IMG/VR virus record: IMGVR_UViG_3300042975_000096
From: a virus
Taxonomy: Duplodnaviria; Caudoviricetes
DNA length: 64,000 nt
Strand: one strand, 5' to 3'
Below the pieces are notes generated by a model that worked only from the letters and a program-made list of their open reading frames with translations, searched no databases and was not told the origin of the DNA. Numbering within the stretch: the first letter of the stretch is position 1; each line of letters opens with the position of its first letter. A program made the translations under genes and the position numbers. Shown here in pieces: positions 1,235 to 43,338 of the stretch.

Positions 1235-1449
1235 ATTTCGATTCACGCACCTCGTAGAGGTGCGACGTTAGCAAGGTAGCAGATAACAAGCGATTAGCGG
1301 ACATTTCAATTCACGCACCCATACAGGGTGCGACTATCAGGATTGCACAAATTTCAATTCACGCACCTCTGCGAGGTGCGACGTTATATTTCTTTTCCGT
1401 TTCTCTATTTTATCTATATTTCAATTCACGCACCTCTGCGAGGTGCGAC
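1235..1449 (-). CRISPR. Type I-C-like CRISPR array 1 (4 repeats, 3 spacers)
   Basis: 32-bp repeats at 1235, 1303, 1351, 1418; minus-strand consensus GTCGCACCTCGCAGAGGTGCGTGAATTGAAAT; spacers 36, 16, 35 nt. Confidence 0.95.
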
Positions 1450-1650
1450 AGCACACATGCCAAAGCCTTGCTACGCAAGGGCTGAAATGGCACTTTGTGC
1501 GAACCCCTTAATGTTTTACAAAATTCATTGACATATCTACATGCAAATACGTATGAACCCTGTAAAACAAAGAGGTGCGAAGCACCTAGTGTTTTTCTGT
1601 TCACTTATGCTTCGCACTTATTATAACATTCTATTTATCATTTTGTCAAG
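1450..1650 (-). promoter_or_regulatory. CRISPR leader copy 1 with sigmaA promoter
   Basis: Near-identical to 34551-34752 and 43138-43338; TTGACA (1649-1644)-N18-TATAAT (1625-1620); gtgcgaagca...tgcttcgcac inverted repeat 1575-1617. Confidence 0.9.
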
Positions 1651-1653
1651 TAA

Positions 1654-3750
1654 TTATTTTATTTTTATTTTCAATCTACGTTTTTCCGTTAAATCATCCG
1701 ATTCAACTAAATAACCCAATACAGAATCGCAACAATCTTTAGTGCTATCATAAAGTCTAGCGCAACCATTATCGGTTGCAACAACCTTTGCACCTTTTTC
1801 TGATTTTCCCACAAAATTAACACGAACACGTCCTGATAATGCAACAGGAATAAAATCGCTATTTGCTTCTTCTATGGTCTGTCCGTCTGTTGCTAATACA
1901 CCACCAACAATATGTCCATAAGAATCAGAATGAACCCCAATTACACATTTAGCGTTTTCAGTTGCCTTAATATATTGTTCTTTATCTGAATTCAAATCTA
2001 ACATAACTACATCACCAGGCAATGTTTCCTCTCCACGTGGGAAAAATTCTGCATAGTCATTATAGATTGCGTTATGTACTTTAGGAGCAGTAAACTCACT
2101 ATAACTATGTAGATACGTTCCATCATAAGCCAATCTTGCTTGATTAATATTACCAAAATAAACTGGATTACCCTCCATTACAATTCTTGCGCCTGAACCA
2201 CCATAACGTGTTGTAACATTCAAGTGGCAAATATTTGTTTCAGCCATTGCATTTAAATTTTTAGAAACATTAAGGGTTTCCACATCCTCTGAATTTACAT
2301 TAATATAGTCCGCATGAAAACCTCCAGGTCTATCCATTAAATATACACTATCATCATAAAACGGAGTAGTTCTTGAACTTCCATCAGAACCTAATACATA
2401 ACCTTTTTTCGTTGCATTGTGATTTATTTTAATTTCTGTAGAATAATCAGATTCACTTGAAGTATCTGCATTACCTTGTAGATGTCCAACAAATGTATTT
2501 GCGGTAATAGACCCCTTATTTTTATCTAACATTACCGCTGAATCACAAATTAAAGTATTATATGCTCCATATTGAGGTGTTGCGGTAATATATCCTTGTG
2601 AGTAATCCTCATTATTAACCATAACCTTATCTGCATTCATTGCATGATTAGCTTCATTTGAAAGCCCTGTCAAATTACCATCAATATTTTTCCCATTAAT
2701 CTTAACACAATCTCTACTAAGTCTCCAATATTCTATAGAAGAAGGAGATAAAGCTTCCATTACATTATTAATTTCAACCTGTGCAGAACCATAGATACAT
2801 AATTTCATATCATCTGCCCAGCCATTTTTTAATGTTTTCAAATATATCTTTAGCTTTCCATCAATGGTATTATATGCAACAATATCACAGTCTCTTAATG
2901 TACCAATAACCAATCCATTTAAGAACGCACCCTCACGATTTGAAGCACAAACAGTTATATGTGCTTTTCCTTCATCTTTTGCCCATCCTCCAATATGACC
3001 TTCAATCAATACATAATCATATGTAGTGGTATTACTAGAAGGTAAAGTACATAACAAACGGTATGTATCAAACGCAGGATGGTCTGCATTTAAACGAATA
3101 TTTAATGGCATGATTTTTTCAGACGTTACATCAATTTTAACATCTTCACTACCATCAAACATAGTTGAACCTGAAATCAAATTTGTTAACTCTATCTTTC
3201 TAGGATATTTTAATTTATGTGCAACATTTGCTTCTTCCGCAACAATTTTAATACCATCTTTATCATGTGGATTGTCACCTGGGTCTTCATCCTCTGTATC
3301 AGTGATGTTTTTTCCATTATCATCTTTAATCGGATTTCCATCTTCATCTTTTCCACCAGTTAATTCATACAAATAAACAAAGCGTTTCCATCCTGACCAT
3401 TCATTACTTGAAGCCTTACTATAGCGATAATACCATTTACCGTTTTTAACTGGATGTAATTCATCTTGTTGAACGACCATAATTTGATATTTATATCTTC
3501 CCATACCAACATTAAGCAACGTTCCAACCGTACAGAAGTTCTCTGCCAAATTATATTCTGATAAAATAGCATATACATTCATTCCTGTATCTGGCCATAG
3601 ACCTGGAGCATCATTTGAATTCGTCACTCCTGTAGGAAACTTTAATGTTCCGCTAAATATATCATAAACTCTATCTAATTTTTCTCCATATATGGCTTGC
3701 TGTTCCGCAAGCTTTTTATACAATTCTAATAGCGATAATTCTTGCGCCAT
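1654..3750 (-). CDS. Tail fibre/spike protein with C-terminal peptidase G2-like intramolecular chaperone domain
   Basis: WSGWKR motif, fibre-type GHLQGNADTS segments, C-terminal NDYAEFF..PGDVV..IGVHSD..PVALSGRVRV. Confidence 0.75.
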   Translation of the reverse strand: MAQELSLLELYKKLAEQQAIYGEKLDRVYDIFSGTLKFPTGVTNSNDAPGLWPDTGMNVYAILSEYNLAENFCTVGTLLNVGMGRYKYQIMVVQQDELHPVKNGKWYYRYSKASSNEWSGWKRFVYLYELTGGKDEDGNPIKDDNGKNITDTEDEDPGDNPHDKDGIKIVAEEANVAHKLKYPRKIELTNLISGSTMFDGSEDVKIDVTSEKIMPLNIRLNADHPAFDTYRLLCTLPSSNTTTYDYVLIEGHIGGWAKDEGKAHITVCASNREGAFLNGLVIGTLRDCDIVAYNTIDGKLKIYLKTLKNGWADDMKLCIYGSAQVEINNVMEALSPSSIEYWRLSRDCVKINGKNIDGNLTGLSNEANHAMNADKVMVNNEDYSQGYITATPQYGAYNTLICDSAVMLDKNKGSITANTFVGHLQGNADTSSESDYSTEIKINHNATKKGYVLGSDGSSRTTPFYDDSVYLMDRPGGFHADYINVNSEDVETLNVSKNLNAMAETNICHLNVTTRYGGSGARIVMEGNPVYFGNINQARLAYDGTYLHSYSEFTAPKVHNAIYNDYAEFFPRGEETLPGDVVMLDLNSDKEQYIKATENAKCVIGVHSDSYGHIVGGVLATDGQTIEEANSDFIPVALSGRVRVNFVGKSEKGAKVVATDNGCARLYDSTKDCCDSVLGYLVESDDLTEKRRLKIKIK

Positions 3751-3823
3751 TTAAAAATCACCAACTTTTTATTATTTATACTCTTTTTATTATCTATAAC
3801 AAAATATACATAGTTTATATACC

Positions 3824-4375
3824 TTACCGGTATACCCATTGCCGTTGAGCGTAGCTACGTATACGTACTGGGGCTGGATTACTCTTAATTGCCTTACCAT
3901 GTGGACGTAAAGCTTTTTTCAAGTTTTGTTTTTGTGTTTGATATGCAGATAACAATGAAGATGCAATTGATTGATAACCAGCTGCTGCATTAATATTTAA
4001 TGAAATACCATTATCTGAATAACTAAAGCTTTCTCCTGTCTGCACAATGGCTTCACCCATTAAAGCACTAATCAATGCTCCTGCTAATATACAACCATGC
4101 CAACTAATTGGTACATCACCTAGCATATATACAGTAAACGGCGGTTCTGCATTTATATCTGCCATTGCAATTTGTAAATATATTAACAATAATTCATCTG
4201 ACCATCTATATCCTCTTTGTTTTTCAACTAAGGTATTCAAACTTCTAAATTGTTCATCTGGCATATCTTTCAACATAGCCCTTAATTTGTGAACCAAATC
4301 TCTTTCTTCATCTGTTAATGGAGAAATCGAACTATCTTGCGAAGATTGCAAAATAATTGGCATATTTATCACCAC
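3824..4375 (-). CDS. Hypothetical, probable head-tail/neck protein
   Basis: 183-aa ORF; LRAMLKD..WSDELL..SYSDNGISL pattern is reminiscent of head-completion proteins. Confidence 0.4.
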   Translation of the reverse strand: MVINMPIILQSSQDSSISPLTDEERDLVHKLRAMLKDMPDEQFRSLNTLVEKQRGYRWSDELLLIYLQIAMADINAEPPFTVYMLGDVPISWHGCILAGALISALMGEAIVQTGESFSYSDNGISLNINAAAGYQSIASSLLSAYQTQKQNLKKALRPHGKAIKSNPAPVRIRSYAQRQWVYR

Positions 4376-4433
4376 TTTTATAAAAAATTAAAACCTTACT
4401 AATAGATAAATACATCCATAGTAAGGTTTTAAT

Positions 4434-5369
4434 TTAATAGTTAGTAACCAACACTTCAACTGTTTTACTAACTCTATCCTTTTTATGATAGCTTGCATTA
4501 CCATAATCATAATTCAAATAATGCACATTATATTTTTTAGACCAACCAATTAATAAATCATTGCTTTTCCCATTAACCTCAAATACATTTGATAATGCAA
4601 ATTTACATTTTAATGAATTTAGCAAATCAAACAAATCTTGTTCTTCTTTTTCCGTCCATAATTTATTATAAACCGAATCCGTTATTAAATACGGAACATC
4701 ACAATAAATTAATGTATTCTTATCTATATTATTAAAATCAATTTTTCTAAAATCTTTATTCATAAAAGCAATATTCTTTTGTTTCATTAAATTAGAAAAA
4801 TCAACTACTTTTTTTCTTAGTCTTTTATTGAAATCGGATTTGCCAACAGGCATATTATAATATCCATCTTTATTAAACCGAATTTGATTGTTAAATGAAA
4901 ACATAATTATTGCAAAAAACAATTCAATATCAATAATCCCTTGAGTTTTTAAATCATTAAAATCTTCTCTTAATGCAAGATAATTTTCCTTATTATAATG
5001 ACTCAATCCCCAATTATTATGTCCATTATTATAATATTTAATGCCATTTAAATGTGATTCCGATAAATGATAGTCATTAACAATATTTTCAATATTATGA
5101 ATAATCACATTAGATTCTGTTTCGTTCAAATATTTCAACAATCGAATTACATATGAATCAATATCATTCATAATTACATTTTTTGATTTAACGTTAATAC
5201 CTACATTACCGCCACCACAAAACAAATCAATAAAACTATCTGTATCATAAAACAACGGAATTATTTGTGGCAATAATTTATATTTTCCCCCTGTATAATT
5301 TAACGGACTTTGTACGAAATCCATCCCATATTTCTCTCCCCATCTAAATAATGGGATGCTATTGCACAT
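4434..5369 (-). CDS. dam: DNA N6-adenine methyltransferase (Dam/D12 family)
   Basis: SPLNYTGGKYKLL, DLFCGGG, RFNKDGYYNMPVG, IYCDVPY (DPPY variant), EVLVTNY; true start probably the internal Met (MDFVQ). Confidence 0.88.
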   Translation of the reverse strand: MCNSIPLFRWGEKYGMDFVQSPLNYTGGKYKLLPQIIPLFYDTDSFIDLFCGGGNVGINVKSKNVIMNDIDSYVIRLLKYLNETESNVIIHNIENIVNDYHLSESHLNGIKYYNNGHNNWGLSHYNKENYLALREDFNDLKTQGIIDIELFFAIIMFSFNNQIRFNKDGYYNMPVGKSDFNKRLRKKVVDFSNLMKQKNIAFMNKDFRKIDFNNIDKNTLIYCDVPYLITDSVYNKLWTEKEEQDLFDLLNSLKCKFALSNVFEVNGKSNDLLIGWSKKYNVHYLNYDYGNASYHKKDRVSKTVEVLVTNY

Positions 5370-5380
5370 CCCATCTCATA

Positions 5381-5767
5381 TTAATAATCGTATTCATCGC
5401 TATAATCGTAATATTGTTCTGCCTCATCATAAATATATTCGGCAATATTTTTCAAAAAAGTATGATTGTGAACCAAATCTGAAATAGTTTCGCTTTTATC
5501 ATCATTCGAAATAGTAACATCATTATCGTATTCATAATCTTCCATTGCAATTTCAATCAATGCAAATAAAAATTCTTTATCGTCTTCTAAAGAATCTTCT
5601 AAACAAGCCATTTCTTCATCCGTTCTATTTTCATAGTTAATCATATCTTTGGCATCTGTTTTGCAAAAATTATCTAATTCTGTTTTTAATCTTCCTGTTG
5701 GTTCTTTTGTAAAATCAATGATTTCATTGTCATAACTTTTTGAGGCAATTAATCGTTTTTTTCTCAA
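5381..5767 (-). CDS. Hypothetical acidic protein
   Basis: 128-aa ORF overlapping the upstream stop. Confidence 0.6.
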   Translation of the reverse strand: MRKKRLIASKSYDNEIIDFTKEPTGRLKTELDNFCKTDAKDMINYENRTDEEMACLEDSLEDDKEFLFALIEIAMEDYEYDNDVTISNDDKSETISDLVHNHTFLKNIAEYIYDEAEQYYDYSDEYDY

Positions 5768-6156
5768 TTTTCCTTAAACTCCTTTTCTACTGTTGATTCA
5801 CTAGAAGATGTATCTTTATTATCGTGATTAAGATTTTCTTCTTCAACCTCTCTATCTTCCATATGTTCGCAATCATCTTTAATTATCTTATCCAAATGAC
5901 CTTCTAATTCTAAGCGGTCATCGTCTTCATTCTGAACAATATTATTATCATACAGAAAATATTGTAAAATGGTTTCATCCCAATCTGAAAATTTATCTCT
6001 CATCCATGCTTTAAATATTTTGCCAATACGTTGTGCTTCATCGTTATCGTCTTCGTGAATATCCAAAACATATTTCATAGTTAAAATAATTGATTTTCTT
6101 TTTCTACGTGGTTTTGCTGTGGTCATCTTTGTTAAACGTTTTTTCAACAAACTCAC
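5764..6156 (-). CDS. Hypothetical protein
   Basis: 130-aa ORF with AAGGTAGG RBS. Confidence 0.6.
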   Translation of the reverse strand: MSLLKKRLTKMTTAKPRRKRKSIILTMKYVLDIHEDDNDEAQRIGKIFKAWMRDKFSDWDETILQYFLYDNNIVQNEDDDRLELEGHLDKIIKDDCEHMEDREVEEENLNHDNKDTSSSESTVEKEFKEN

Positions 6157-6328
6157 CTACCTTATCTTTTATATCTATTATTAAAATATTTTTTATACAC
6201 AAAAAAATATTAGTTTACAGATAAAACCCCTAGTTTTATTCTATTCAAGCAAGGCGATAAAAGTTAAGATAAACCCATATTTATTAAATGAACCCTATAT
6301 AAATGAAAAGAATCGAGGTGGATTATTT

Positions 6329-7819: not shown

Positions 7820-7842
7820 TCAAAAAACGGATGTGATATATT

Positions 7843-8433: not shown

Positions 8434-8453
8434 TAAATGGATGGTGATATGTA

Positions 8454-8932: not shown

Positions 8933-8983
8933 TTTTCAAAAGATAATATTAATTTTAACCAATACAATGGGAAGGAATAAACT

Positions 8984-9595: not shown

Positions 9596-9612
9596 AAAAG
9601 AGGTGAATCACA

Positions 9613-10338: not shown

Positions 10339-10353
10339 AGGTGGTGAATATTA

Positions 10354-11649
10354 ATGGCAGGTGGAGTTTTTGGTGGCGGTGATGGTTCTCAAAAATCACC
10401 ATTCTTAATAGAAGACGGTGCAGATTTATATCAAATGAGAAATCATCCTACCTCCTATTTTAAATTAATCTCAAACATTAATTTAGGTGAACCACCATAT
10501 AATGAAAAACGTGGCTGGGAACCAATTAATAGTTTCCGTGGGAGATTAGATGGAAATTATAAAAAAATATTTAATTTAACAATTACTAGACAGGATGAAG
10601 ATGATATTGGTCTTTTTAGTGTAATTGATGCAAATGCATGTGGAACATCAACACCATGTTATAATGTTTGTTTTGAAGAAACAAATATTATTGGTGGTAA
10701 TAATGTCGGTGCACTTTGCGGTAGATTTATTCATAATAATGACACATGGATTGGAAAAATTGATTTTTCAATCATTCAAAATTGTTATGTAGATGGAAAC
10801 ATTGAAGGTAAAAATAACGTTGGTGGATTTATTGGTAAAATCGATTCTTCAGCAAGTGCAACACAAAATAGACAATTGCCAATCGCAAGAGATTCTATTT
10901 CAAACTGTTCTTTAGCATTATCAAATGCAGATTCTACATTTATTGGTCAATTCGTTGGAATTATATCTGATAAATGGAACAATAGTTGCCAATACACACA
11001 TCCAAATTTTTACAACACATTGGCAACGGGCAGTATTTCTCCAAATTCAAAAACGCCAACAAAACCAGGTAATTACTTCTATGATTTGTATAATCAAGGC
11101 GTTTATACGAATTCTTATATGGATAATGCTCTTTGGGGATTTACAAATTTTGGAGATACTACACTTAAATGTATGGATACGTCTGAATTGAAATCAATCG
11201 CAAATCAAGCTGATTTTGCAACAATATTGAATGACGATAAGATTTCTCATAAATTCAGTTTATACGATGGGAGATATGTACAATTAGCATATCAAAGCCC
11301 TGATTATTTCTTCATTAAGGCTGACGATAATTTCTATACTTATGATTTTACAACTTCAAAATGGATTTTAAAATACAATCTAACTCCTTCTAGACAACAA
11401 GCAATTATCAACGGAATGCGAGCTTTACAGGATGTTCCACAAACAGCATGGGATTATTTCAAAACATTCCAAAATGTAAGTATAATTGATATTCTAGACA
11501 AAAAAGATAGTACACTTCAAACAACACAAGAAACAGAATTAGATATAGATGCTACACATACTAGTGACGATAATAAAAAAATGATTGTAAAACAAAAATT
11601 TTATTTTAACACTAGAATCGGTAATCTATCTAAATTGACAGGATGGTGA
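10354..11649 (+). CDS. GLUG-motif protein, paralog 1
   Basis: FGGGDGSQKSPFLIED..DL N-terminus; GNNVGALCG and KNNVGGFIG repeats. Confidence 0.8.
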   Translation: MAGGVFGGGDGSQKSPFLIEDGADLYQMRNHPTSYFKLISNINLGEPPYNEKRGWEPINSFRGRLDGNYKKIFNLTITRQDEDDIGLFSVIDANACGTSTPCYNVCFEETNIIGGNNVGALCGRFIHNNDTWIGKIDFSIIQNCYVDGNIEGKNNVGGFIGKIDSSASATQNRQLPIARDSISNCSLALSNADSTFIGQFVGIISDKWNNSCQYTHPNFYNTLATGSISPNSKTPTKPGNYFYDLYNQGVYTNSYMDNALWGFTNFGDTTLKCMDTSELKSIANQADFATILNDDKISHKFSLYDGRYVQLAYQSPDYFFIKADDNFYTYDFTTSKWILKYNLTPSRQQAIINGMRALQDVPQTAWDYFKTFQNVSIIDILDKKDSTLQTTQETELDIDATHTSDDNKKMIVKQKFYFNTRIGNLSKLTGW

Positions 11650-11656
11650 TTCTATA

Positions 11657-12937
11657 ATGGCTAATGGTTACTTTGGTGGGGGAGATGGAACTCCTGCTAA
11701 TCCATTTTTAATTGAAGATGCTGATGATTTAAATTCAATCAGAAAACATTTAGGTAGTAGTTATAAAATAATAAATGATATAAATTTAGCTGATGGTAAA
11801 TACAATGTAGAACAAGGATGGAATCCTATTGATAATTTTACAGGAACGTTAGATGGACAAAATCATAAATTAATTAATTTATATATTAATCGTCCTGCAC
11901 AAGATAATGTAGGATTATTTGGTCATGTACATGCCAACAATACAATCACAGTCAATAATTTACAAATAATTGATTGTGATATAACAGGGCATAATCAAGT
12001 TGGTTCGCTATTGGGATATAATGAAAATCCTTCTTGGGAATTTAATAGCTCATATACAGTTAATAATGTTTATGTTAAAGGAAAAATAACTGGTAATGCA
12101 AATGTAAGTGGTTTGATTGGTTATATAGGCATTATTGGTATTAATGGGGAATATCTTGATAAAGAAATTCGCACTTCCTTTACAATTAATTTAAATAATA
12201 TTTTTTGCAATGTTAATATTTCAAGCAATGACAACATTGCTTATGGTATAACTAAAATTATCGCAAATCGAATATCTGGTAGCAATTGCAATAGTCAATG
12301 GAATTGTAATTGTGTAACACAAGCATCTATTACTTTTACTAACTGTTTTACTATTATGCATAAAAACGATAAGATTTTAACTTATTATGCAATTTGCAAT
12401 CCTGAAAACAATAACAACACATACGCTTGTTATACAGATAACACGGAAATTTCTCCTATTATTTATTCAGGAACAGATTATGCTAATCTTCAAAATATAA
12501 AATTTCAAAATGGTTGGCTTCCAAAAATAGACCCAACTTATTATAATAAACAAATTGCCAAACAACCTGAACCTGTATTGTTGAATTTAAATAACATCTA
12601 TGTATTCTTTAATAATGGATATTACACTTATGATTTATCAACAAAAACGTGGACAAGAAAATATACCACTTTAGATAACAACAATTCAAAGAAAATAATT
12701 CAAAATGGAATGAATAAATTGGATTTCAATCACATTCCACAAGAAGTTTGGGTTACATTGAGCAAACAATATTCAGAAATTAAAGTGGTTAATTGTATTA
12801 ATGCACATGATAAAATATTGTATCATGAAAGCAGAGTTACATTGCCAACATATACAACTTCTGAAAGCAAAAATATTGTAAAGAAAAAAATAAAATTCGA
12901 AGACTTTAATAATAATATTACGAAAATTATAAAATAA
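11657..12937 (+). CDS. GLUG-motif protein, paralog 2
   Basis: FGGGDGTPANPFLIED; NVGLFG; NQVGSLLG. Confidence 0.8.
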   Translation: MANGYFGGGDGTPANPFLIEDADDLNSIRKHLGSSYKIINDINLADGKYNVEQGWNPIDNFTGTLDGQNHKLINLYINRPAQDNVGLFGHVHANNTITVNNLQIIDCDITGHNQVGSLLGYNENPSWEFNSSYTVNNVYVKGKITGNANVSGLIGYIGIIGINGEYLDKEIRTSFTINLNNIFCNVNISSNDNIAYGITKIIANRISGSNCNSQWNCNCVTQASITFTNCFTIMHKNDKILTYYAICNPENNNNTYACYTDNTEISPIIYSGTDYANLQNIKFQNGWLPKIDPTYYNKQIAKQPEPVLLNLNNIYVFFNNGYYTYDLSTKTWTRKYTTLDNNNSKKIIQNGMNKLDFNHIPQEVWVTLSKQYSEIKVVNCINAHDKILYHESRVTLPTYTTSESKNIVKKKIKFEDFNNNITKIIK

Positions 12938-12952
12938 GGCAGGTGATTAGAT

Positions 12953-14245
12953 TTGAACGGTCACTTTGGTGGAGGAAAAGGAACGTTAGCAAACCCATAT
13001 CTTATTGAAGATATTTGGGATTTTGATAATATTCGCCATTTCCCTAATAAAAGTTTTAAATTAACAAAAAATATCAATTTCGCCACGCCCCCATTTAATG
13101 ATGGTTTTTTACCAATTGCTCATTTTGAGGGTCAATTAGATGGTGATGGACATAAATTAATGAATGTTTATATCAACAAATCTAATATGGATAATGTTGG
13201 CATATTCTCTCTCGTTGATTTTGCATTAACCAATTATCAAGATGTATCCATCAGACCACATATTTGCAATCTCGTTATTGAAAATGCAAATGTAATTGGA
13301 GGTAAAAGTTCCGCAGGAATTCTAATTGGAGCTATGAATTATCATTATAATTGGGGTGTTGCCAATTATGGAGAATATTTAAATAATATTTATGTTAGTG
13401 GTACAGTTAGTGGTTATAACTATAACGGAGCATTGATTGGATATTTATATTTTGAACATGACAATTGGCAAAACACTTTTGCTAAAAACATTCAATGCAA
13501 CGTTGTATTAAAACCACAATTAAATTTAACATATAATTCTCCGTTATTTGGTTACATTAAATCTAATGAACAATCATATATCAACACTATTGAATTAATA
13601 AAAGATTCATTTATTGAAGCTTCTATCGATGATTCATTAGTTACATTATCTATGAATAATTGTAGTTCTCACGTTAATTCAAATGCAGGACAAAATGATA
13701 CATATCATTATAGATGCAACAATGTTATTCTAAATCAGGATAAATGGAATGGAAAACATTCTACTTATATTAATGAAATGACTTATGCTGATATTTGTTT
13801 GGCTTATAAAATGAGTGGTTTTAAATCCAATATAACTGATATAAATAAATGGTATTTACGTTATAATATTGCCCCACAATTGTTAGAATTGAATAATAAT
13901 TTATATTTTGTATCTGCAAATAATAAATTTTATACTTATGATTCTGACAAAGATTTATTTAATCAGGTTTATATTTTCGATTATGAACAAGCCGTTGCTA
14001 ATAAAGGGATTACTAATTTATCTGATTTATCAGTTAATTTCTTTAAATCTGCACATAAAACATTCGGTGATTCATATAAGATTGTAAATATAATTGATAA
14101 AAATAATGGTGTTATATTAAATAATGATACTGAAATTGTTTTAACTAGAGATGCAACAAAAGATTATGATTCAAAATATGTTTATAGAAAAAAAGTAAGC
14201 TTTTCTACTATAACAGGTGATATTGATTCTATTGTCGATGAATAA
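12953..14245 (+). CDS. GLUG-motif protein, paralog 3
   Basis: FGGGKGTLANPYLIED; LDGDGHKL; NGALIG. Confidence 0.8.
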   Translation: MNGHFGGGKGTLANPYLIEDIWDFDNIRHFPNKSFKLTKNINFATPPFNDGFLPIAHFEGQLDGDGHKLMNVYINKSNMDNVGIFSLVDFALTNYQDVSIRPHICNLVIENANVIGGKSSAGILIGAMNYHYNWGVANYGEYLNNIYVSGTVSGYNYNGALIGYLYFEHDNWQNTFAKNIQCNVVLKPQLNLTYNSPLFGYIKSNEQSYINTIELIKDSFIEASIDDSLVTLSMNNCSSHVNSNAGQNDTYHYRCNNVILNQDKWNGKHSTYINEMTYADICLAYKMSGFKSNITDINKWYLRYNIAPQLLELNNNLYFVSANNKFYTYDSDKDLFNQVYIFDYEQAVANKGITNLSDLSVNFFKSAHKTFGDSYKIVNIIDKNNGVILNNDTEIVLTRDATKDYDSKYVYRKKVSFSTITGDIDSIVDE

Positions 14246-24976: not shown

Positions 24977-25789
24977 TTATATTAATTGAGCCAATTCCGT
25001 TAATGGTTTTTGTAGCGCAACATTATTTTTCATTTTCTTTATTCTTAAATAAATACCTGCTTTTGTCATATTCAGGAGTTTGCTTATCTCTCCAATTTCA
25101 ATTCCTTTAATACACAATTTCAAGATATTTACATCTTTTTCTTCTAATAATGGATAAATGGATTGTTCTAATGTTTGATTAAATAAGACTTTATTATAGC
25201 TGTCTGCTGACCTATCGTCAACAATGGTATCTCCCAATTCCGTTTTTTGTTCGCTATCAGCTTTAATGGATAATGATACTTCACCGAATTTATTAATACG
25301 CTTTTGTGCATTTAATTTAGTAAAGTACATTCCAACTGTATTTTGTGCGCATCGCCAAAAAAACGTATTAAATTTAACCCCACCAAATTTATATGTTTTC
25401 ATGCACTTAATTAACTGCATATTAATTTCCCCGATTAATTCTTCAGCTTTTGACAATGATTTAGATTTTGCCATATATTCAATTTTAGGCTTAAAATATC
25501 TATATACATAATCAAATGCTTCATTGCATCCTGCACGAAAATCACAAACAGCATCTTCAATTGTCGGAATACTTTCATAAAAGTTGCTTTTTTCGGCAAT
25601 TTCACCGTCTTTAAGCTTAATTGGTGCTTCATCATAAATAATGCAATCTGATAAATCAGACACACAAATCGGTGACTCATCATAAAATTCGCAATCAGAC
25701 GTATCAGTAACGCATATTGCCATTTCATCATAAAGAATGCAGTCTTTATTTTCTAACATATATTTATCAAAATCACTCAATTTATCCAC
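24977..25789 (-). CDS. Phage sigma70-family RNA polymerase sigma factor
   Basis: Region 2 (EAFDYVYRYFKPKI..KFNTFFWRCAQN) and region 4 HTH (EIGEISKLLNMTKAGIYLRIKKMK). Confidence 0.8.
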   Translation of the reverse strand: MDKLSDFDKYMLENKDCILYDEMAICVTDTSDCEFYDESPICVSDLSDCIIYDEAPIKLKDGEIAEKSNFYESIPTIEDAVCDFRAGCNEAFDYVYRYFKPKIEYMAKSKSLSKAEELIGEINMQLIKCMKTYKFGGVKFNTFFWRCAQNTVGMYFTKLNAQKRINKFGEVSLSIKADSEQKTELGDTIVDDRSADSYNKVLFNQTLEQSIYPLLEEKDVNILKLCIKGIEIGEISKLLNMTKAGIYLRIKKMKNNVALQKPLTELAQLI

Positions 25790-26068: not shown

Positions 26069-26695
26069 TTATTCGTTGGATTTGCTCTTTTTTTCTTCAT
26101 CTTCTGAACTACCTTCTTCTTCATTTTCATTATTTAATTCATTATCATTATCTAAATTAAAATCAACATCATCATTTAATTCATTCTCATCTTTTTGTTT
26201 ATCATTAATTTTATCTTTTAATTCTTCTTCATGTTCTGCAACATAATTAGTTTCATCATCTAATCCATCACTTAACGTTTCAACAGCTTCATTAAACGGG
26301 TCATCTTCTCCTTCTTCACTTTCAGATAACTCTAAAATTTCTTCCGTCTCTGGTAAATAAGGAATAATATAATCTTCAGGATTGCTCTTATTATCTTCAT
26401 TTAATTCTTGCAAATCGTTTCCTGTTTCAGGATTCATTAAAGAATCATCAATGAATAATTGGATTATTCTATCCCATCGATATGAACGCACTGAACCATC
26501 TTGCTTATAACACATGATTAAAAGATTGTTGTCTTTACTGTTATTCCATCCGTATGGCTGAACAGTTCTCCATCCACTATTCTCATATTCAATTTTTATT
26601 AACATTGAATTAGCCATAGAATCAGTAATATACTGTATCGCATCATCATCTAAATTTACTTTAGATAAATCTGCCAATCTAATTAAATATTTCAT
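26069..26695 (-). CDS. WYL-domain protein with acidic tail
   Basis: IKIEY..RTVQPY..LIMCY..VRSYRWDRI; no HTH; D/E-rich C-terminus. Confidence 0.75.
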   Translation of the reverse strand: MKYLIRLADLSKVNLDDDAIQYITDSMANSMLIKIEYENSGWRTVQPYGWNNSKDNNLLIMCYKQDGSVRSYRWDRIIQLFIDDSLMNPETGNDLQELNEDNKSNPEDYIIPYLPETEEILELSESEEGEDDPFNEAVETLSDGLDDETNYVAEHEEELKDKINDKQKDENELNDDVDFNLDNDNELNNENEEEGSSEDEEKKSKSNE

Positions 26696-33605: not shown

Positions 33606-33637
33606 AAAAAAAGCACTCTGTTTTTTGAGTGCTTTTT
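33606..33637 (-). terminator. Intrinsic terminator
   Basis: aaaaagcactc...gagtgcttttt immediately after the 33639 stop. Confidence 0.75.
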
Positions 33638-33638
33638 A

Positions 33639-34172: not shown

Positions 34173-34216
34173 GCTTTAACCGCCGTCCTTTTTTATGTTC
34201 TATCTATAGAATATTT

Positions 34217-34414: not shown

Positions 34415-34444
34415 TATATTTAGACCCCTTTCTTGTTTTTGATG

Positions 34445-34550
34445 ATTTCAATTCACGCACCTCGTGCGAGGTGCGAGCCGGACAAGCAAGAGATTAGAAG
34501 AAATTAAGCCCGCGCATTTCAATTCACGCATCCGTCTAGCGAGGTGCGAC
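34445..34550 (-). CRISPR. Single-spacer type I-C mini-array 2
   Basis: Repeats 34445-34477 and 34516-34550 equal the consensus plus single-base insertions; ~38-nt spacer. Confidence 0.85.
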
Positions 34551-34752
34551 AGCACCCATGCCGAAGCCTTGCTAGTGCAAGGGCTGAAATGGCACTTTGT
34601 GCGAACCCCTAATCATTTTACAAAATTCATTTACATATCCCCATGCAAATACGTATGAACCCTATAAAACAAAGGGGTGCGAAGCACCTAGTGTTTTTCT
34701 GTTCACTTATGCTTCGCACTTATTATAACATTTCACTTATTCTATTGTCAAG
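34551..34752 (-). promoter_or_regulatory. CRISPR leader copy 2 with sigmaA promoter
   Basis: Same leader; TTGACA (34751-34746)-N18-TATAAT (34727-34722). Confidence 0.9.
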
Positions 34753-34770
34753 TATTAATATTTAATTTTA

Positions 34771-36472: not shown

Positions 36473-36498
36473 AATTAACGCCCCCTATTTACAAAATA

Positions 36499-37354
36499 TT
36501 ATATGGAATTACAAATTCTTTTTGCAATTTCTCTCATCGCTGGTTGAAAAACAGTTCTTCCTGCACGTTCATATAGTTTAGAATCAGATAAACCACAAGA
36601 TAAAATTTTGTCAATACTTTCATCTTCAATTCCTTGCAATCTAAAACATTCTCTAGGCGTTAATTTTCTCAATCTATTATTGTCAATAATCAGTGGCACG
36701 TTATTTCCACCGAGTACCCATAGAAGCTGTCAATGTTGGACAATATCCTTGAAATCTTCTAAAATTTCCACGTCTGTATTGATAGATACATATTTCGCTA
36801 TCATTTTTTGATATACTTTCGAGGATAGGAAATATTTTTCCGGTACGTTGTCCTCTAATATGTCCGACAATGAACACCCTTTCTCTGAGGACGGGATACC
36901 CAAAATTTTTTGCGTTGACACATTGCCATTCAACATCATACCCCAATTTGTCCAACTCCCAGAGTATTCGTTTAAAGCTTTCTCCGTTATCATGATTCAA
37001 TAACCCCTTTACATTTTCAAACCAAAACATCTTTGGCTTTTTTATTTTCAAAATCTTTGCCAATTCAAAAAACATTTGTCCTCTAGGGTCTTTTGAGGCA
37101 AATCCTTCTCTATCTCCTGCAATTGAAAACTTTGCACATGGAAAACCACCACATAACAAATCAATATCAGGAAGTGTATTGTAATCATAAGTTCGAATAT
37201 CTTTATCGTATGGCATTTCATTAAACAATGATTGATATATTGTCTGTGATGCAATTTCATAATCTGAACTGAATACACATTTCGTATCAAACTTTTCTAA
37301 TGCCAATCTAAATCCACCTATGCCACAAAACATATCTGCATATTTGATAGTCAT
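36499..37354 (-). CDS. C5-cytosine methyltransferase homolog, candidate carboxymethyltransferase; 1-nt insertion at ~36712
   Basis: DMFCGIGG, GGFPC, ENV, RERVFIVG, TLTASMGT/GGNNVP, RKLTPRECFRLQG, motif X LYERAGRTV. Confidence 0.85.
36730..36993 (-). CDS. Nested alternative-frame ORF, EcoHK31I beta-like
   Basis: SWTNWGMMLNG..PSSEKGCSLSDILEDNVPEKYFLS; lies wholly within the methyltransferase gene. Confidence 0.6.
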   Translation of the reverse strand: MITEKALNEYSGSWTNWGMMLNGNVSTQKILGIPSSEKGCSLSDILEDNVPEKYFLSSKVYQKMIAKYVSINTDVEILEDFKDIVQH

Positions 37355-37406
37355 TATTATTTCCTCTTCTCATAAAATATTTACTATACTTTTTAGTATA
37401 TTAAAA

Positions 37407-37691
37407 TCATTTTGATGTATATTTTTTTGGTTTTCCATTTTCATCCAACACATTACCGCCAATAACATATGAGATTGAATATTTAGCATGTACTGCTGTG
37501 ACATAGTATTCATATTTCGTATTTTTATCAGCAACAATATAATAATCCTCTCCAAATTGTTCTACAAATATAAACTGTGATGAGTCATTACAAAAATCTT
37601 CACCAGTTTTTCTATTAACACTAGCGTTCCCTGTACATCCTGCCAATACAAGCGTACACACAATTAATACGATTGAAATGTATTTTTTCAT
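37407..37691 (-). CDS. Small lipoprotein
   Basis: MKK + hydrophobic stretch + LAGC lipobox. Confidence 0.75.
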   Translation of the reverse strand: MKKYISIVLIVCTLVLAGCTGNASVNRKTGEDFCNDSSQFIFVEQFGEDYYIVADKNTKYEYYVTAVHAKYSISYVIGGNVLDENGKPKKYTSK

Positions 37692-37703
37692 GATAACCCT
37701 CTT

Positions 37704-38627
37704 TTACAAATATTTTTCTACTTGTTTTGCCAAATTCTCTGCAAATAATGATGGTATTCCACTACAACGTTCATATTGTTTTGCTAATGGAATGTTTACA
37801 TCAAAGCAAAACGTATCAGGAACGCTCTGTATTCGTAAACATTCACGTACTGTAAATCTTCTAGGAGGATTTATTTGCGTTTTTCTTATATCGTAATTTG
37901 CTGGTGATGGGTATAACGGCAACTGTCTTGCACAAGAAACGATAGTAAATGATTGTTCATTCCATTGCCGTTGCCTGTTCCTAGAAATATATCTAGAAGA
38001 AAATCCACCATCATAATACTCATAATGATTAAAAGACTCATATTTTTTAGCAGGAATAGGTAAATCATGTATTGCATCATAAAGAGTTTTCTTTGGTAAT
38101 GTGTTAGGAAACTCAAAATTATCATTATGAATTCCAACAACAAAAACTCTTTTCCTGTCTTGTGGAATTCCATAATCAGATAGATTCATTAACTTGAATT
38201 TTACAATATATCCCATATTTTCAAATGATTGAATTAAAAAATTAAAAAACGCGCAATGTTTTTTACTAACCAATCCTGCAACATTTTCAATAACAAATGC
38301 TTTTGGTCTTTTATCATTAACAATACGCATAAACTGCAAACTTAAATCGCCATTCTTTTCATCATGTACTCCTTTTCCGCTTCCTGCAACACTAAATGGC
38401 TTACAAGGGAAACCTCCAATGATTACATCCGAATTAGGAATATCTGATGATTTTAACTTTCTTATATCTTTACACACAGCATTGAATTTAATATTTTTAA
38501 TATAAGTATCAACCGCATATTGATTATTATCAACTGCATAATTTATATCAAAAACATTTTTAAATCCCATTGCCCCTATACCTGCACCACAAAACAAATC
38601 TGTTACAGTATACATATTCTTAATCAT
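37704..38627 (-). CDS. dcm: C5-cytosine DNA methyltransferase homolog
   Basis: DLFCGAG, GGFPCKPFS, IENV, PQDRKRVF, RRFTVRECLRIQ; atypical motif X (QYERCSGIP). Confidence 0.88.
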   Translation of the reverse strand: MIKNMYTVTDLFCGAGIGAMGFKNVFDINYAVDNNQYAVDTYIKNIKFNAVCKDIRKLKSSDIPNSDVIIGGFPCKPFSVAGSGKGVHDEKNGDLSLQFMRIVNDKRPKAFVIENVAGLVSKKHCAFFNFLIQSFENMGYIVKFKLMNLSDYGIPQDRKRVFVVGIHNDNFEFPNTLPKKTLYDAIHDLPIPAKKYESFNHYEYYDGGFSSRYISRNRQRQWNEQSFTIVSCARQLPLYPSPANYDIRKTQINPPRRFTVRECLRIQSVPDTFCFDVNIPLAKQYERCSGIPSLFAENLAKQVEKYL

Positions 38628-39325
38628 CCTTTTATCGCAATATATCCTTCAAAATTCAACATACGCCAAAAAGTTTCAACCTTTGCAAACCCTGCTTGAT
38701 GCAATAATTCTTTATTCCATTCTGAAGTAACTGGAACCAAAACTCCAGCCAATGATTTTCTTTTTTCTTCAATTTGCTCTTTTGAATATCCATTTTCATT
38801 TTTTAATTGATAATAGCTATCTACTAACAAATTATTAATTGTATTACATGAACCTAAAACCTTTTCAACAAAAATAAAAATCCCATTTTTATTTAAAGAA
38901 TCATAAATGTTTTGTAAAATTTGCTGTCTATTTTCAATTGGTGTGAATTGAATTGTTAGCACAGACATAATAATATCAAAATTATTTGTACCAAAATCTT
39001 CTTCTAAAATGTCTCGATTCATGATTTTAATGTTATCTGCGTGTTCAAATCTTTTTTTTGCTTTTTCAATCATCGGTTCAGAAACATCAATTCCTAAACA
39101 TTGGTATTTATTGTTATTTTCAAATGGGATTAAGTTTAATCCATTTGAACATCCCAAATCCAAAACGTTTCCGCTTTTATGTTTACATAGCATTTGTATT
39201 GTTTTTCGCATAACATCATATTGTGGAATTGAACGTTGTAACATATCCTCAAAACAATCTGCTACTTGTTCGTCAAATTCCCACTTGCCATTAACGTGGA
39301 TTTTATCTTTTGCCATATTAATCAC
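38624..39325 (-). CDS. cmoA: CmoA-like carboxy-SAM synthase
   Basis: WEFDEQVADCFEDMLQRSIPQY, LDLGCSNG, TIQF, FVEK, GYSKEQIEEKRKSL, AGF..LNFEGYIAIK. Confidence 0.85.
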   Translation of the reverse strand: MINMAKDKIHVNGKWEFDEQVADCFEDMLQRSIPQYDVMRKTIQMLCKHKSGNVLDLGCSNGLNLIPFENNNKYQCLGIDVSEPMIEKAKKRFEHADNIKIMNRDILEEDFGTNNFDIIMSVLTIQFTPIENRQQILQNIYDSLNKNGIFIFVEKVLGSCNTINNLLVDSYYQLKNENGYSKEQIEEKRKSLAGVLVPVTSEWNKELLHQAGFAKVETFWRMLNFEGYIAIKG

Positions 39326-39693
39326 TAGCCTTTATATACATATAAAAATCTTCATCAACATTTTTAAAAAATAAATAACATTTCCTTTTATCGTTGAACG
39401 TATAATTAAAACTATCTTCTGTATATGGAGCATTAATGTTATTCGTCATCTTGCCAATTTTATCAAAGTTTTTTTCTACAAGAAAATTTTTAATATCATA
39501 ATCCATTGGCAAAAACAATGATAGATATTTCCCTTTTGAACATTTTCCAACGTCTGTATGTATTTCAAACTTTGTGCCCAACCATACTTTCATCACCATA
39601 TCTTACAATTTCTTCATCTTTAGATATAGCCAATTTATATACTGTATATCCATCGCCTTTTGTTGCTTGTTCAAATCCTTGTGATATTTTCAT
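39318..39693 (-). CDS. Hypothetical protein (probable indel near 39590)
   Basis: GAGGTG RBS and ATG 39693 give MKISQGFEQATKGDGYTVYKLAISKDEEIV.., which overlaps ORF 39318-39599 in another frame. Confidence 0.45.
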
Positions 39694-39702
39694 AAATCCA
39701 CC

Positions 39703-40419
39703 TCAAAATTTCACTTTATCATAAATAGGAATTTCTTTTTTCAATTGTTCTACATCATCCGTATCTTCTAGTTCAATTAAAAAATCTTCTTTTTTGACAT
39801 TCTCTATTTTTTCCCAATATAATGTATCATTACGTTTAATTAATACATAGTGACCATTTATAGCAGACAGCTTTTTGTCATTTTTCAAAACAATTGAGTT
39901 AACATCACCGTCATAATCATATGAATATACCTCTGAAACTTCGTCAGATTCGTTGTAACAGTTTTTTACTCTGCACCCTACTACTACTTCACTTATTTTT
40001 TTAACGCCCTTAGAAGTGATTACAGGGCTGTTCTCGACGAAACACTTATAACCACTATCACCACCAAATTTACCACCGGCATGAAGTCTAGTAAGAATAC
40101 CTGTTAATGTATCTTGTGGTGAACCATCTTTGTTTTTCCATTCAGGATGTGTTCCAACAGGAATTCCGCGACCTTCATCTGTACTCGTTACCGTTCCATC
40201 TTTGTGAACATGAATGGTAATATTTTCGCCAAATCCTGCCGTATATTCGTCGATGGAATTATCAATAACTTCATAAACTAATTGGTCTATGCCTGATTGT
40301 GAGGTACTACCGATATACATACCTGGACGTTTTCTAACGGCTTCCAACCCATTCAATGATTTAATCTGGTTTACATCATAATCATTTTTCACTTTTAGCA
40401 TTTCTTGTTCTTTAGTCAT
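39703..40419 (-). CDS. gyrB: GyrB N-extein fused to split-intein N-half (113 aa from Cys at 40044)
   Basis: GLEAVRKRPGMYIGST, EVIDNSIDE, DEGRGIP, LHAGGKFGGDSGYK|CFVENSPVITSKGVKKISEV..SAINGHYVL..WEKIENVKKEDFL. Confidence 0.92.
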   Translation of the reverse strand: MTKEQEMLKVKNDYDVNQIKSLNGLEAVRKRPGMYIGSTSQSGIDQLVYEVIDNSIDEYTAGFGENITIHVHKDGTVTSTDEGRGIPVGTHPEWKNKDGSPQDTLTGILTRLHAGGKFGGDSGYKCFVENSPVITSKGVKKISEVVVGCRVKNCYNESDEVSEVYSYDYDGDVNSIVLKNDKKLSAINGHYVLIKRNDTLYWEKIENVKKEDFLIELEDTDDVEQLKKEIPIYDKVKF

Positions 40420-40514
40420 TTTAATTTTATCCCCTCTCATCGTCATATATATTCATTGTATTTATTTTATTAAAAAAAATAAAGGATGAAAATTATTCAC
40501 CCTTTATTTTTCAA

Positions 40515-41745
40515 TTACTTATCTTCTTCTGTTTCGTATAACTGTTGACCTTTATCCTTAAGTACCCATGCAATAATTAAATTAAATACAAATATTGCAG
40601 AAAATAGATACATAATTAATTGATAAGAACCAAACACTGATTTTGTAAACGTAAGCAAAAGTGGACCAGCAATTCCTGCAAATCCCCAAGCTGTTAAAAT
40701 TCTACCATGAATTGTTGACAAATGTCGCGTTCCAAAAATATCACTAAGATATGCTGGCATACATGAAAATCCACCACCATAGCATGTAATAATCATCAAA
40801 ACAAACAATTCAAACAAAAACTCGTTCGTTGTCGTTGCCAACAAGAAGAACATTACAATTTCAAGTACAAAGAATGTAACATATGTATATCCACGACCAA
40901 TATAATCAGAAATTGTAGCCCAAACAATACGACCGAAGACCATTAAGCAATCCGACAATACCAACTAAAGCCGCTGCTCTTGTTGGCGAAAAACCAACAA
41001 CCTCTTGTGCCATAGGTGAAACAACAGATAACAATGCAATACCACAAGAAATATTTATGAAAAAAATAATCCACAACGCTTTAAACTGCCATGTACTATA
41101 AACTTCTTTTGGTGGAATATCCTCTCCAATAAAATCTTCTGCTTCATTGTATCCTTTTGGTGGAGCTAAATATAATGATGACAATGCCATAATAATCATG
41201 TAGGCAAATCCCAAAATCAAGAAATTGCTAACCAATCCATATGTAGAAGATAAAAACTGCATTAAAGGAGCAGCAATCAATGCAGCAAATCCAAATGACA
41301 TGATTGAAATTCCTGTTGCAAAACCTCTATTTTCAGGAAAATATTTAACCAGTGTAGATACAGGAGTTATATAGCCCAATCCCAATCCACAACCGCCAAT
41401 AACACCATAGAACAAATACAACAAAAATAAACTATGTAGAGATAATGCCAATGAAGTTCCAAACAATCCCAACCCAAAAAAGGCAGAAGCCAATAAACCA
41501 ACTTTTTTTGCACCCCACTTATCAACTAGATTCCCAAAAAATCCTGCTGATAATCCAAGGAATAAAATTGCCAATGAAAATGCAAATGTTGTTTGTGATA
41601 AAGACCATCCATTCTCAGCAATAATTGGATTTACCAAAACGCTCCATGCATATACGCTACCAATCGAAATATGGATTCCACCAGCTGCTAATGCAATCAA
41701 CCATCGATTCCTTTGTAGTTTTGAAAATACTTTTTTCATAACCAT
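40515..41745 (-). CDS. OFA-family MFS transporter (oxalate/formate or lactate type); 1-nt insertion at ~40938
   Basis: NRWLIALAAGGIHISIGSVYAWSV, GLGYITPVSTLVKYFP..RGFATG, NG/FGRIVWATISDYIGR, YGGGFSCMPAYLSDIFG. Confidence 0.88.
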
Positions 41746-41842
41746 TATTTATATCACTTTCCTTTCAATTGATGTTTTTATTATATTTATTTAAAAATAA
41801 AAATGCTATATATTCGTCTTAAATATATAGCATTTCTAATAA

Positions 41843-42214
41843 TTATTCTTCTTCCCATCTATAGGCATGTCCACGCATATCAACGTGTACAACATTATCT
41901 CCATATTTCAATCCAATTCCTTCCGCGCCTTTTTCTTCGCATAAATCTGCAAATTCATCAACCGTCATATATTCAGGAACAGCAATGTCTACTGCTATAC
42001 CTTGTATATGATAACTGTTTTTGTATCCACCAACAGATTCATTATAGTCCTTACATCTAGCGCAAGATATAATTTCTAATGGTTCTTCGACTTCTGATTG
42101 TACATTATCCAAAAAATCTAATAATTCCTCTGCAATTCCATCTTCTGGTTGCCATCCACAATGCGGACATGACAATGATTCTTCATCAAAACTATTTGAA
42201 CTATTCATATTCAA
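41843..42214 (-). CDS. Peptidase M15A (YcbK-like) zinc peptidase
   Basis: CPHCG..ISCARC..N..VGGYKNSYH..GIAVDI..VHVDMRG. Confidence 0.85.
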   Translation of the reverse strand: MNMNSSNSFDEESLSCPHCGWQPEDGIAEELLDFLDNVQSEVEEPLEIISCARCKDYNESVGGYKNSYHIQGIAVDIAVPEYMTVDEFADLCEEKGAEGIGLKYGDNVVHVDMRGHAYRWEEE

Positions 42215-42402
42215 TTGTAGGGAAAATAGTTAATTTCTTTTTCTAAATAATAAATATGTCATTTTCACCTACTTTTCACCTCACTTTAAAATTTTATTTT
42301 ATTATCCATACTTTAAATAGTATTTATCAGACCTTTTATCTTTGTATTATTAATACAAAAAATGACGAATGCATATACTACACATTCGTCATTTTTTCAC
42401 AA

Positions 42403-42681
42403 TTAAGCATTCAGTTTATCTTTCAAGCTACTAGATACAACTACCTTCAATGCTTTAGACGGAGGAATGTCTACCATTTCTCTCGTTTGTGGATTGCGAC
42501 CTTTACGCGCCGCTCTATCAATACGCTTAAACGTACCAAAATTCTTTTGATTATATGTATCGCCATCAACCAATGCATCCACCAATACATCGAAGAATGT
42601 GTCTACACAATCCTCAATTTGGGTTAACGTAATTCCATCCATTCTATCTGAAATTGCTTTTGCCATATCATGTTTCTTCAT
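42403..42681 (-). CDS. hup: HU family DNA-binding protein (divergent)
   Basis: [16 protein letters not shown]. Confidence 0.9.
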   Translation of the reverse strand: MKKHDMAKAISDRMDGITLTQIEDCVDTFFDVLVDALVDGDTYNQKNFGTFKRIDRAARKGRNPQTREMVDIPPSKALKVVVSSSLKDKLNA

Positions 42682-42783
42682 GTAAAATCACCTATTATCT
42701 ATTTTTTTAATAATGTCCTTCTTTAACTAAGAAATTCTCATTTCTATGAAATTAATACATCTTGTTTACATAAAATATTTGTC

Positions 42784-43137
42784 GTTTTTATTCACGCACC
42801 CATACGGGTGCGACCATTTGAACGCTTCTGCTAGTTTTGCATCTTTTTCATTTCGATTCACGCACCTCTGCGAGGTGCGACTTCAAGTTCAGAAAAACTA
42901 TATTTACTTGTATATTTCAATTCACGCACCTCTGCGAGGTGCGACTTGTAGGTGGTACAACCGCATCGTGCATTTCAATTCACGCACCTCTGCGAGGTGC
43001 GACATACTTTTTTAAGTTTCTTTATTTCATTCTTTATTATTTCAATTCACGCACCTCTGCGAGGTGCGACACATCAGAGCTGAAAACTGTTGATGATAAG
43101 CAGTTATTTCAATTCACGCACCTCTGCGAGGTGCGAC
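42784..43137 (-). CRISPR. Type I-C-like CRISPR array 3 (6 repeats, 5 spacers)
   Basis: Repeats at 42784 (degenerate), 42850, 42914, 42972, 43039, 43106; spacers 35, 32, 26, 35, 35 nt. Confidence 0.96.
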
Positions 43138-43338
43138 AGCACACATGCCAAAGCCTTGCTATGCAAGGGCTGAAATGGCACTTTGTGCGAACCCCTAACC
43201 ATTTTACAAAATTCATTGACATTTCCCCATGAAAATAAGCATGAACCCTGTAAAACAAAGGGGTGCGAAGCACCTAGTGTTTTTCTGTTCACTTATGCTT
43301 CGCACTTATTATAACATTTAATTTATTATTTTGTCAAG
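43138..43338 (-). promoter_or_regulatory. CRISPR leader copy 3 with sigmaA promoter
   Basis: Same leader; TTGACA (43337-43332)-N18-TATAAT (43313-43308). Confidence 0.9.

Follow-up and report, generated by a model that had tools for sequence, protein, structure and literature searches.

Dispersed type I-C CRISPR cassettes with their own promoters and leaders, and spacer turnover at their leader ends, in a huge phage

A 64,000-nucleotide stretch of the virus record IMGVR_UViG_3300042975_000096 (Duplodnaviria; Caudoviricetes), referred to in its whole length as the window, carries three clustered regularly interspaced short palindromic repeat (CRISPR) arrays of type I-C at separate loci on its minus strand. 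Each of these arrays follows its own copy of one promoter-leader module that is homologous to bacterial type I-C leaders, and no core cas gene was detected in ~102 kb of phage DNA. Between nearly identical phage strains, the spacers closest to the leader have been replaced while those at the opposite end have been kept. What was observed directly is the structure of the arrays, the homology of their leader to bacterial ones, the polarised replacement of spacers, and the lack of cas genes in the ~102 kb. Judging from these sequence features, the cassettes are probably functional type I-C arrays that act as self-contained units and use type I-C Cas proteins most likely supplied by the host. Our model goes beyond these observations in what it assumes on the expression and processing of the arrays, on the origin of the Cas proteins, and on the targets.

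The three arrays (Table 1) comprise 12 repeats (4, 2, and 6, respectively) and nine spacers, all nine of which differ from each other. The repeats have the consensus GTCGCACCTCGCAGAGGTGCGTGAATTGAAAT and show the type I-C form, with a length of ~32 nt, a GTCGC start, a G+C-rich hairpin, and an ATTGAAA(T/C) end. Degenerate repeats occur at the array end far from the leader. A search of the window with the 17-nt repeat core, allowing up to three mismatches, returned 13 matches compared to 0.32 expected by chance, and 12 of the 13 were the array repeats. A preliminary description of the window, which had been made from the sequence alone, had reported three minus-strand arrays with nine different spacers, and both statements were borne out by the location of the repeats and the comparison of the spacers. 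It had also recommended a search for further leader copies outside the window and had named misassembly of these copies as a possible objection. The search of the flanks added two cassettes, which precede the window start by 6.8 and 8.7 kb and bring the number within ~52 kb to five. Misassembly as well as contamination with host DNA could be ruled out, as the arrays were found in the same phage flanks in at least ten independent assemblies. The surrounding genes for baseplate, tail, and lysin proteins, gyrase, ClpX, RecJ, DnaB, and a sigma factor place the arrays in a viral genome.

Table 1 Coordinates of the CRISPR arrays, the promoter-leader modules, and adjacent features in the window.
Feature	Position	Strand	Details
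Two terminator-like hairpins directly after array 1	1159..1234	-	16-pair hairpin at 1196-1234; 13-pair hairpin with T-run at 1188..1159
CRISPR array 1	1235..1449	-	4 repeats, 3 spacers (35, 16, 36 nt from leader)
Array 1 repeats	1235-1266, 1303-1334, 1351-1382, 1418-1449	-	
Promoter and type I-C leader of array 1	1450..1649	-	TTGACA-18-TGnTATAAT at 1649..1620
CRISPR array 2	34445..34550	-	2 variant repeats, one 38-nt spacer
Array 2 repeats	34445-34477 (33 nt), 34516-34550 (35 nt)	-	
Promoter and leader of array 2	34551..34751	-	Directly after gyrB stop codon
HU/IHF-family gene	42403..42681	-	PF00216; ~100 nt downstream of array 3, no terminator detected between; context only
CRISPR array 3	42784..43137	-	6 repeats, 5 spacers (35, 35, 26, 32, 35 nt from leader)
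Array 3 repeats	42784-42814 (terminal, degenerate), 42850-42881, 42914-42945, 42972-43003, 43039-43070, 43106-43137	-	
Promoter and leader of array 3	43138..43337	-	Module alignment, promoter scan

In the sense of transcription, the same module of ~210 bp precedes each array. Its three copies aligned with a mean column identity of 89%, in agreement with the single leader of ~200 bp that had been described as common to all three arrays. Homology between the copies starts exactly at the −35 box, and each of the three cassettes has a perfect sigma-70 promoter (12/12) of the form TTGACA-18-TGnTATAAT, which includes a TG extension. Similar promoters, likewise perfect sigma-70 ones, occur at four other sites on this strand, and the likeness would fit early transcription by the host RNA polymerase. 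The cassette promoter stands immediately before a palindrome, TGCGAA-N29-TTCGCA, which is located 167 nt before the first repeat. Owing to this arrangement, the palindrome would form the 5' hairpin of the transcript.

Scanning 185,579 species genomes for the repeat stem and 3' end yielded 31 loci. These loci were mostly from Bacillota, and others were found in Galliscardovia and in metagenome-assembled Bacteroidales, Spirochaetales, and Parendomicrobium. The third repeat of array 1 (1303-1334) is identical to a repeat in an array (L010) on contig C40 of the Ruminococcaceae genome G002. On contig C51 of the same genome, cas4, cas1c, and cas2 are situated directly upstream of a leader and an array of the same repeat family (458.7 bits for Cas1c at a cut-off of 385; 64.4 bits for a Cas4 fragment, just under the 65-bit cut-off), and Cas5d is encoded further upstream on this contig (176 bits at a cut-off of 85). 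Because cas genes adjoin the same repeat family in G002, both the subtype I-C and the orientation of the arrays were fixed by test, and the earlier assignment of the repeat to type I-C was thus confirmed.

The TGCGAA-N29-TTCGCA palindrome also occurs in 13 bacterial I-C leaders, at positions −147 to −230 relative to the first repeat. In 11 of the 13 it lies at −165 to −171, compared to −167 in the phage. The 13 loci belong to Paenibacillus, lactobacilli, Clostridia, Galliscardovia, and one Bacteroidales genome. In addition, a GGTTCGCA motif near −60 is common to the phage leader and two leaders of G002. To judge from these shared elements, the phage leader is a genuine type I-C leader that is homologous to bacterial ones. 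The preliminary description had proposed a comparison of the repeat and leader with a host I-C locus; with bacterial I-C loci, the phage cassettes agree in repeat family, orientation, and leader palindrome. The array on contig C40 of G002 has an I-C-type leader and no adjacent cas genes, with DnaD and amino-acid biosynthesis genes as neighbours, which demonstrates that leader-bearing arrays without cas genes occur in cells, too.

The leader RNA of array 1 is unusually structured (z = −8.6), whereas a less refined shuffle test gave z values between about 0 and −6 for bacterial leaders. Three leader hairpins and the repeat hairpin are kept in ten phage leader copies. Compensatory changes were observed at eight pairs across these copies, most of them contributed by one divergent copy, and the covariation support is modest. 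No Rfam family matched the leader or the repeats.

Versions of the array loci in other assemblies were retrieved via the flanking proteins. All related contigs that extend over the trailer end of array 3 retain its trailer spacer and degenerate terminal repeat. Next to the leader, in contrast, four sets of spacers without relation to each other were found, with four, two, one, and three members, respectively. Likewise, sibling contigs have the trailer spacer of array 1 in common with the window but diverge in the spacers near the leader, and this applies even to the sibling that is 99.9% identical. The flanks of the loci showing turnover are 98.6–100% identical, except for 91% upstream of array 3 in one strain (L042), and three array haplotypes occurred together in one sample. 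Conservation of the trailer along with variation next to the leader is what acquisition by Cas1-Cas2 at the first repeat typically leaves behind. Since the trailer was kept and the leader end replaced between near-identical strains, the pattern points to polarised spacer acquisition and indicates that the arrays still gain spacers at the leader end. The preliminary description had suggested that a unit of promoter, leader, and repeats was copied to several loci and gained spacers independently at each of them. Both parts are supported by our data, as the unit is present at three loci in the window and two more within 10 kb before its start, and as each array has its own spacers and related phages display polarised turnover.

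Altogether, 38 distinct inter-repeat segments were collected from five array positions, most of them 32–38 nt long with a mode of 34 nt, in line with the ~33–36 nt expected for type I-C spacers, and an array in a relative contained 7 repeats and 6 spacers. Of the extremes, the three shortest segments are remnants, and those of 45 and 72 nt, the two longest, hold a degenerate repeat. For the 16-nt spacer of array 1 (1335-1350), a relative has a full 38-nt spacer ending in the same bases (L054:377-414), and a 23-nt version is present in the 99.9%-identical sibling contig (L050:12438-12460). These longer versions identify the 16-nt spacer as a deletion remnant and, by the same sequence comparison, short spacers are apparently decay products and not designed short guides. 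One 34-nt spacer was detected in array 3 of one strain (L042:5144-5177) and in array 1 of another (L054:311-344), which suggests that units move between cassettes or that one target has been sampled more than once.

Array 2 behaves differently in that its spacer exists in three diverged versions (window, 34478-34515; L041:13602-13635; L042:13546-13577). The differences look codon-like in a plus-strand frame, as if one position in coding targets that had diverged from each other had been the source of all three versions. The repeat stem in L042 has changes in both arms that preserve its pairing and thus the hairpin. In a fourth strain, the locus is occupied by canonical repeats and six unrelated spacers. 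Array 2 may represent either an old guide that has been retained or a unit with a regulatory role. An additional gene, coding for 477 residues, is inserted immediately downstream of the array in one strain (L041:14009-15442) and is absent from the window and the sibling contig.

None of the 55 open reading frames (ORFs) in the window matched a core Cas family in hidden Markov model (HMM) scans with Pfam, NCBIfam, and PADLOC. The only related matches were a weak WYL domain and a marginal match to CARF. In the flanks, the Pfam-labelled gene tables contained no core cas genes, and nine flank proteins were without a cas match in PADLOC. The search extended over sibling coordinates 113,176-215,071 (~102 kb of the ~431-kb genome), and no complete type I-C locus with cas3, cas5d, cas8c, cas7, cas4, cas1, and cas2 on the same element was present within this span. 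The claim that the window lacks a cas ORF therefore holds under the HMM scans, and the suggestion to look for cas genes elsewhere in the genome led to a negative answer that covers the ~102 kb only. The small protein with the weak WYL domain (26069-26695; PADLOC 3e-7, below the Pfam cut-off) adjoins the phage sigma-factor gene (24977-25789). WYL proteins regulate some CRISPR loci; a link of this protein to the phage cassettes is speculative.

In the model that we favour, each cassette of this lytic-type phage consists of an early-type sigma-70 promoter, an I-C leader of ~170 nt, and repeats with spacers. The host RNA polymerase would transcribe the cassettes early in infection, and type I-C Cas5d would cleave the repeats at the base of their hairpins and leave an 11-nt 5' handle. 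The resulting CRISPR RNAs would be loaded into a type I-C Cascade that is supplied in trans, most likely by the host, and would direct it against competing mobile elements. A type I-C Cas1-Cas2(-Cas4) integrase, likewise provided in trans, would recognise the conserved leader and insert new spacers at the repeat next to it. Use of both the Cascade and the adaptation machinery of the host, termed hijacking in the preliminary description, would be the most likely mechanism. The cassette would have been copied to several loci, where the copies may have diverged by acquisitions, deletions leaving short remnants, and exchange between arrays. A bolder version of this model, to which we give somewhat less than an even chance, would regard the phage genome as a multi-locus spacer bank written in trans by the I-C adaptation complex of the host. 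A mobile cassette would then have seeded at least five loci, each of which acquires spacers on its own during infection and exchanges units with the others, and some cassettes would also serve as promoters and 5' untranslated regions (UTRs) of downstream phage genes.

Several results weigh against the model. As no protospacer was found for any spacer, targets and a TTC protospacer-adjacent motif (PAM) are unsupported, and the comparison of the spacers with viral databases that had been recommended in search of 5'-TTC PAMs gave no positive result. In detail, the best match in the phage collection had E = 0.03 and represented AT-rich noise, and IMG/VR contained no protospacer for the four spacers tried with every sixth base left free. 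No protospacers were detected in the window, the loci retrieved, or ~130 kb of related phage DNA either, so cross-targeting was not detected. Scans of species genomes and metagenome contigs did not detect the exact consensus repeat. Recombination between arrays may account for part of the diversity of spacers. With regard to expression of the cassettes, contigs from RNA libraries provide a weak hint only. Metatranscriptome contigs from four wastewater runs of two studies mapped to a 10-kb stretch; contigs of three runs covered the leader of array 2 and those of one run the first repeat of array 3. Contig depth at these two sites was 15–45, compared to bin means mostly below ~12 over the rest of the stretch. 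However, the leader is multi-copy, such contigs show neither RNA ends nor abundance, and carry-over of DNA is possible. Finally, as the cas search reached ~102 of ~431 kb, a phage-encoded cas operon is possible.

Such an operon is the core of the best-surviving alternative, according to which the phage codes for its own effector of type I-C or an I-C variant, perhaps together with adaptation genes, elsewhere in its 431 kb, and the arrays serve that system. Besides the extent of the cas search, this explanation could draw on several large flank proteins without family assignment and on the I-C-variant effectors that some published huge phages carry themselves (PMC7162821). We nevertheless consider it unlikely, because no cas gene lies within reach of any of the five cassettes although cas operons normally adjoin their array, and because the repeats and the leader are of the standard bacterial I-C type and not of a divergent variant.

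The arrays might alternatively function in counter-defence. Transcribed repeats could flood Cas5d and Cascade of the host with harmless guides, as described for Racr, or regulatory guides could repress host cas or toxin promoters, similar to Cracr and CreR. Viral regulatory arrays against I-C systems have been published (10.1101/2024.10.29.618823; 10.1101/2023.03.03.530964). The many copies with consensus promoters and the presence of 16- and 26-nt spacers would be in line with this explanation, as would array 2, which keeps a homologous, slowly diverging spacer and a variant-repeat hairpin preserved by compensatory changes. Array 2 and the short spacers are thus the candidates for a regulatory-guide role. 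On the other hand, arrays 1 and 3 have normal spacer lengths and show polarised turnover, and the 16-nt spacer derives from a 38-nt one by deletion and varies among genomes that are nearly identical. Moreover, two bacterial I-C operons, neither of them from the real host, contained no seed-plus-PAM match beyond chance 11-mers. As an explanation of the cassettes, counter-defence thus appears improbable, although sequestration and targeting could both operate.

The arrays point in the same direction as the neighbouring genes. Directly after array 1 there are two terminator-like hairpins, of which the 16-pair hairpin was listed on the plus strand; as it is palindromic, it forms on the minus strand, too. 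Between arrays 2 or 3 and the next genes, the terminator scan detected no terminator, and these two arrays may read through. It is very improbable, however, that the module spread mainly as a mobile promoter and 5' UTR for downstream phage genes with the repeats as passengers, as the orientation, the lack of detected terminators after arrays 2 and 3, and the structured leader RNA (z about −8, as against 0 to −6 in bacterial leaders) could suggest, since array 1 ends in strong terminator-like hairpins and neither the motifs of an I-C leader nor repeats with intact hairpins nor a continuing turnover of spacers would be retained by a mere promoter. The array 3 cassette is flanked by two HU/IHF-family genes (42403-42681 and 44675-44950). 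HU and IHF help leader-proximal integration in other CRISPR types, and such genes are also common in large phages.

Phage arrays without cas genes that possibly use host Cas proteins have already been published. For huge phages, compact cas-less arrays with repeats resembling those of the host have been described, and the use of host Cas proteins against competing phages has been proposed (Al-Shayeb et al. 2020, PMC7162821). A jumbophage from a landfill with a genome of 421,673 bp (~422 kb) contains six arrays (PMC11160803). The arrays analysed here resemble those of the huge phages in being compact (the published median is 6 repeats), in having no adaptation genes nearby, and in their bacteria-like repeats (PMC7162821). 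In contrast, each array forms a cassette of its own here, equipped with a consensus promoter and with a leader whose homology to bacterial I-C leaders was demonstrated; a span of ~52 kb holds at least five of these cassettes, and near-identical strains differ by polarised turnover. A further difference is that spacer targets were found in the published work on huge phages and none were found here.

Mini-CRISPR arrays that have leaders and show spacer turnover are known from two archaeal viruses, SPV1 and SPV2 (Medvedeva et al. 2019, PMC6858448). According to this paper, the mini-arrays that had been described from phages by then were leaderless and might gain spacers by recombination (PMC6858448). 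Like the SPV1 and SPV2 arrays, the phage cassettes are virus-borne, have no cas genes, possess leaders with a promoter, and differ in spacers between related viruses. For SPV1 and SPV2, the host-like leaders and the spacer differences imply acquisition by the host machinery. However, those arrays are archaeal, type I-A-like, and contain one or two spacers that target the sister virus, whereas the cassettes studied here belong to a bacteriophage, are of type I-C, occupy many loci, and have up to five spacers (six in a relative) for which no cross-targeting was detected.

Compared to chromosomal I-C loci of Bacillota (for example, cas5d ... cas4-cas1c-cas2-leader-array in G002), the phage arrays agree in repeat family, orientation, the palindrome at about −167, and the range of spacer lengths. 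They differ in that they are short, multiple, without adjacent cas genes, and dispersed in a genome of 30% GC, and in that their leader is fused to a phage-type consensus promoter and forms two extra strong hairpins. Viral repeat units are also known to act as RNA anti-CRISPRs (Racr, PMC10651486) or as regulatory guides, including guides against I-C systems (Cracr, 10.1101/2024.10.29.618823; Shmakov et al. 2023, 10.1101/2023.03.03.530964). The cassettes share with these the property of being phage-coded repeat units, and array 2, with its two variant repeats and conserved spacer, resembles such a unit in form. Unlike them, arrays 1 and 3 have leaders and full-length spacers that turn over, and no complementarity to cas promoters was found in the two bacterial I-C operons, which are not those of the true host.

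What is new here is the multiplication of self-contained I-C promoter-leader-array cassettes together with population evidence of acquisition at the leader end. How cas-less phage arrays obtain their spacers is unsettled, and the present case concerns a bacteriophage with genuine I-C leaders in which the leader end turns over between genomes that are ~99–100% identical. If the Cas proteins are those of the host, these data would provide direct evidence, at the level of populations, that immune memory is written into a virus by a host integrase and is then carried by this virus from cell to cell. The multiplied cassette also represents a compact natural unit of promoter, leader, and repeat for testing which parts of an I-C leader are needed for acquisition. 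Should the phage genome indeed serve as a spacer bank, this bacteriophage would be a natural system in which adaptation into the genome of a virus could be studied.

With a genome of ~431 kb, the virus is a huge phage. Exact-protein look-ups assigned the window to a contig of 431,886 bp, and its sibling of 430,772 bp, JGI 3300051660 Ga0527070_013, has an identity of 99.9% to the window in the part compared. The G+C content of the window is 30.5%. The window codes for GyrA, GyrB, ClpX, RecJ, DnaB, a primase-like protein, a superfamily 2 helicase, and DNA methyltransferases, as well as for the sigma factor, the baseplate, tail, and lysin proteins, and the two HU/IHF-family proteins. No relatives of the window were found in the GenBank phage collection. 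The cassette leader had no match in IMG/VR or in the JGI metagenome collection; the exact phage repeat had none in the latter, and a similar repeat occurred in IMG/VR in one unrelated contig only. DNA of the phage was present in bioreactor-sludge and wastewater runs of 15 studies.

A few further features of the genome were noted. Three tandem paralogues of ~430 residues each, without family assignment, are located in a plus-strand gene block at 10354-14245. The gene for DNA polymerase III alpha consists of two pieces ~6.5 kb apart, situated ~1.3–11.9 kb ahead of the window (L053:3047-4654 and L053:11152-13614), with two of the CRISPR cassettes in the interval. An MFS transporter of the oxalate/formate or lactate type (40515-41745), for which the best identity in a comparison with 401 genomes was 63%, is split in the window into products of 279 and 142 residues and is intact in relatives (409 residues). 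Similarly, a cytosine-5 methyltransferase (36701-37354) has 217 residues in the window compared to 284 in relatives, and in L045 it contains an intein and reaches 629 residues.

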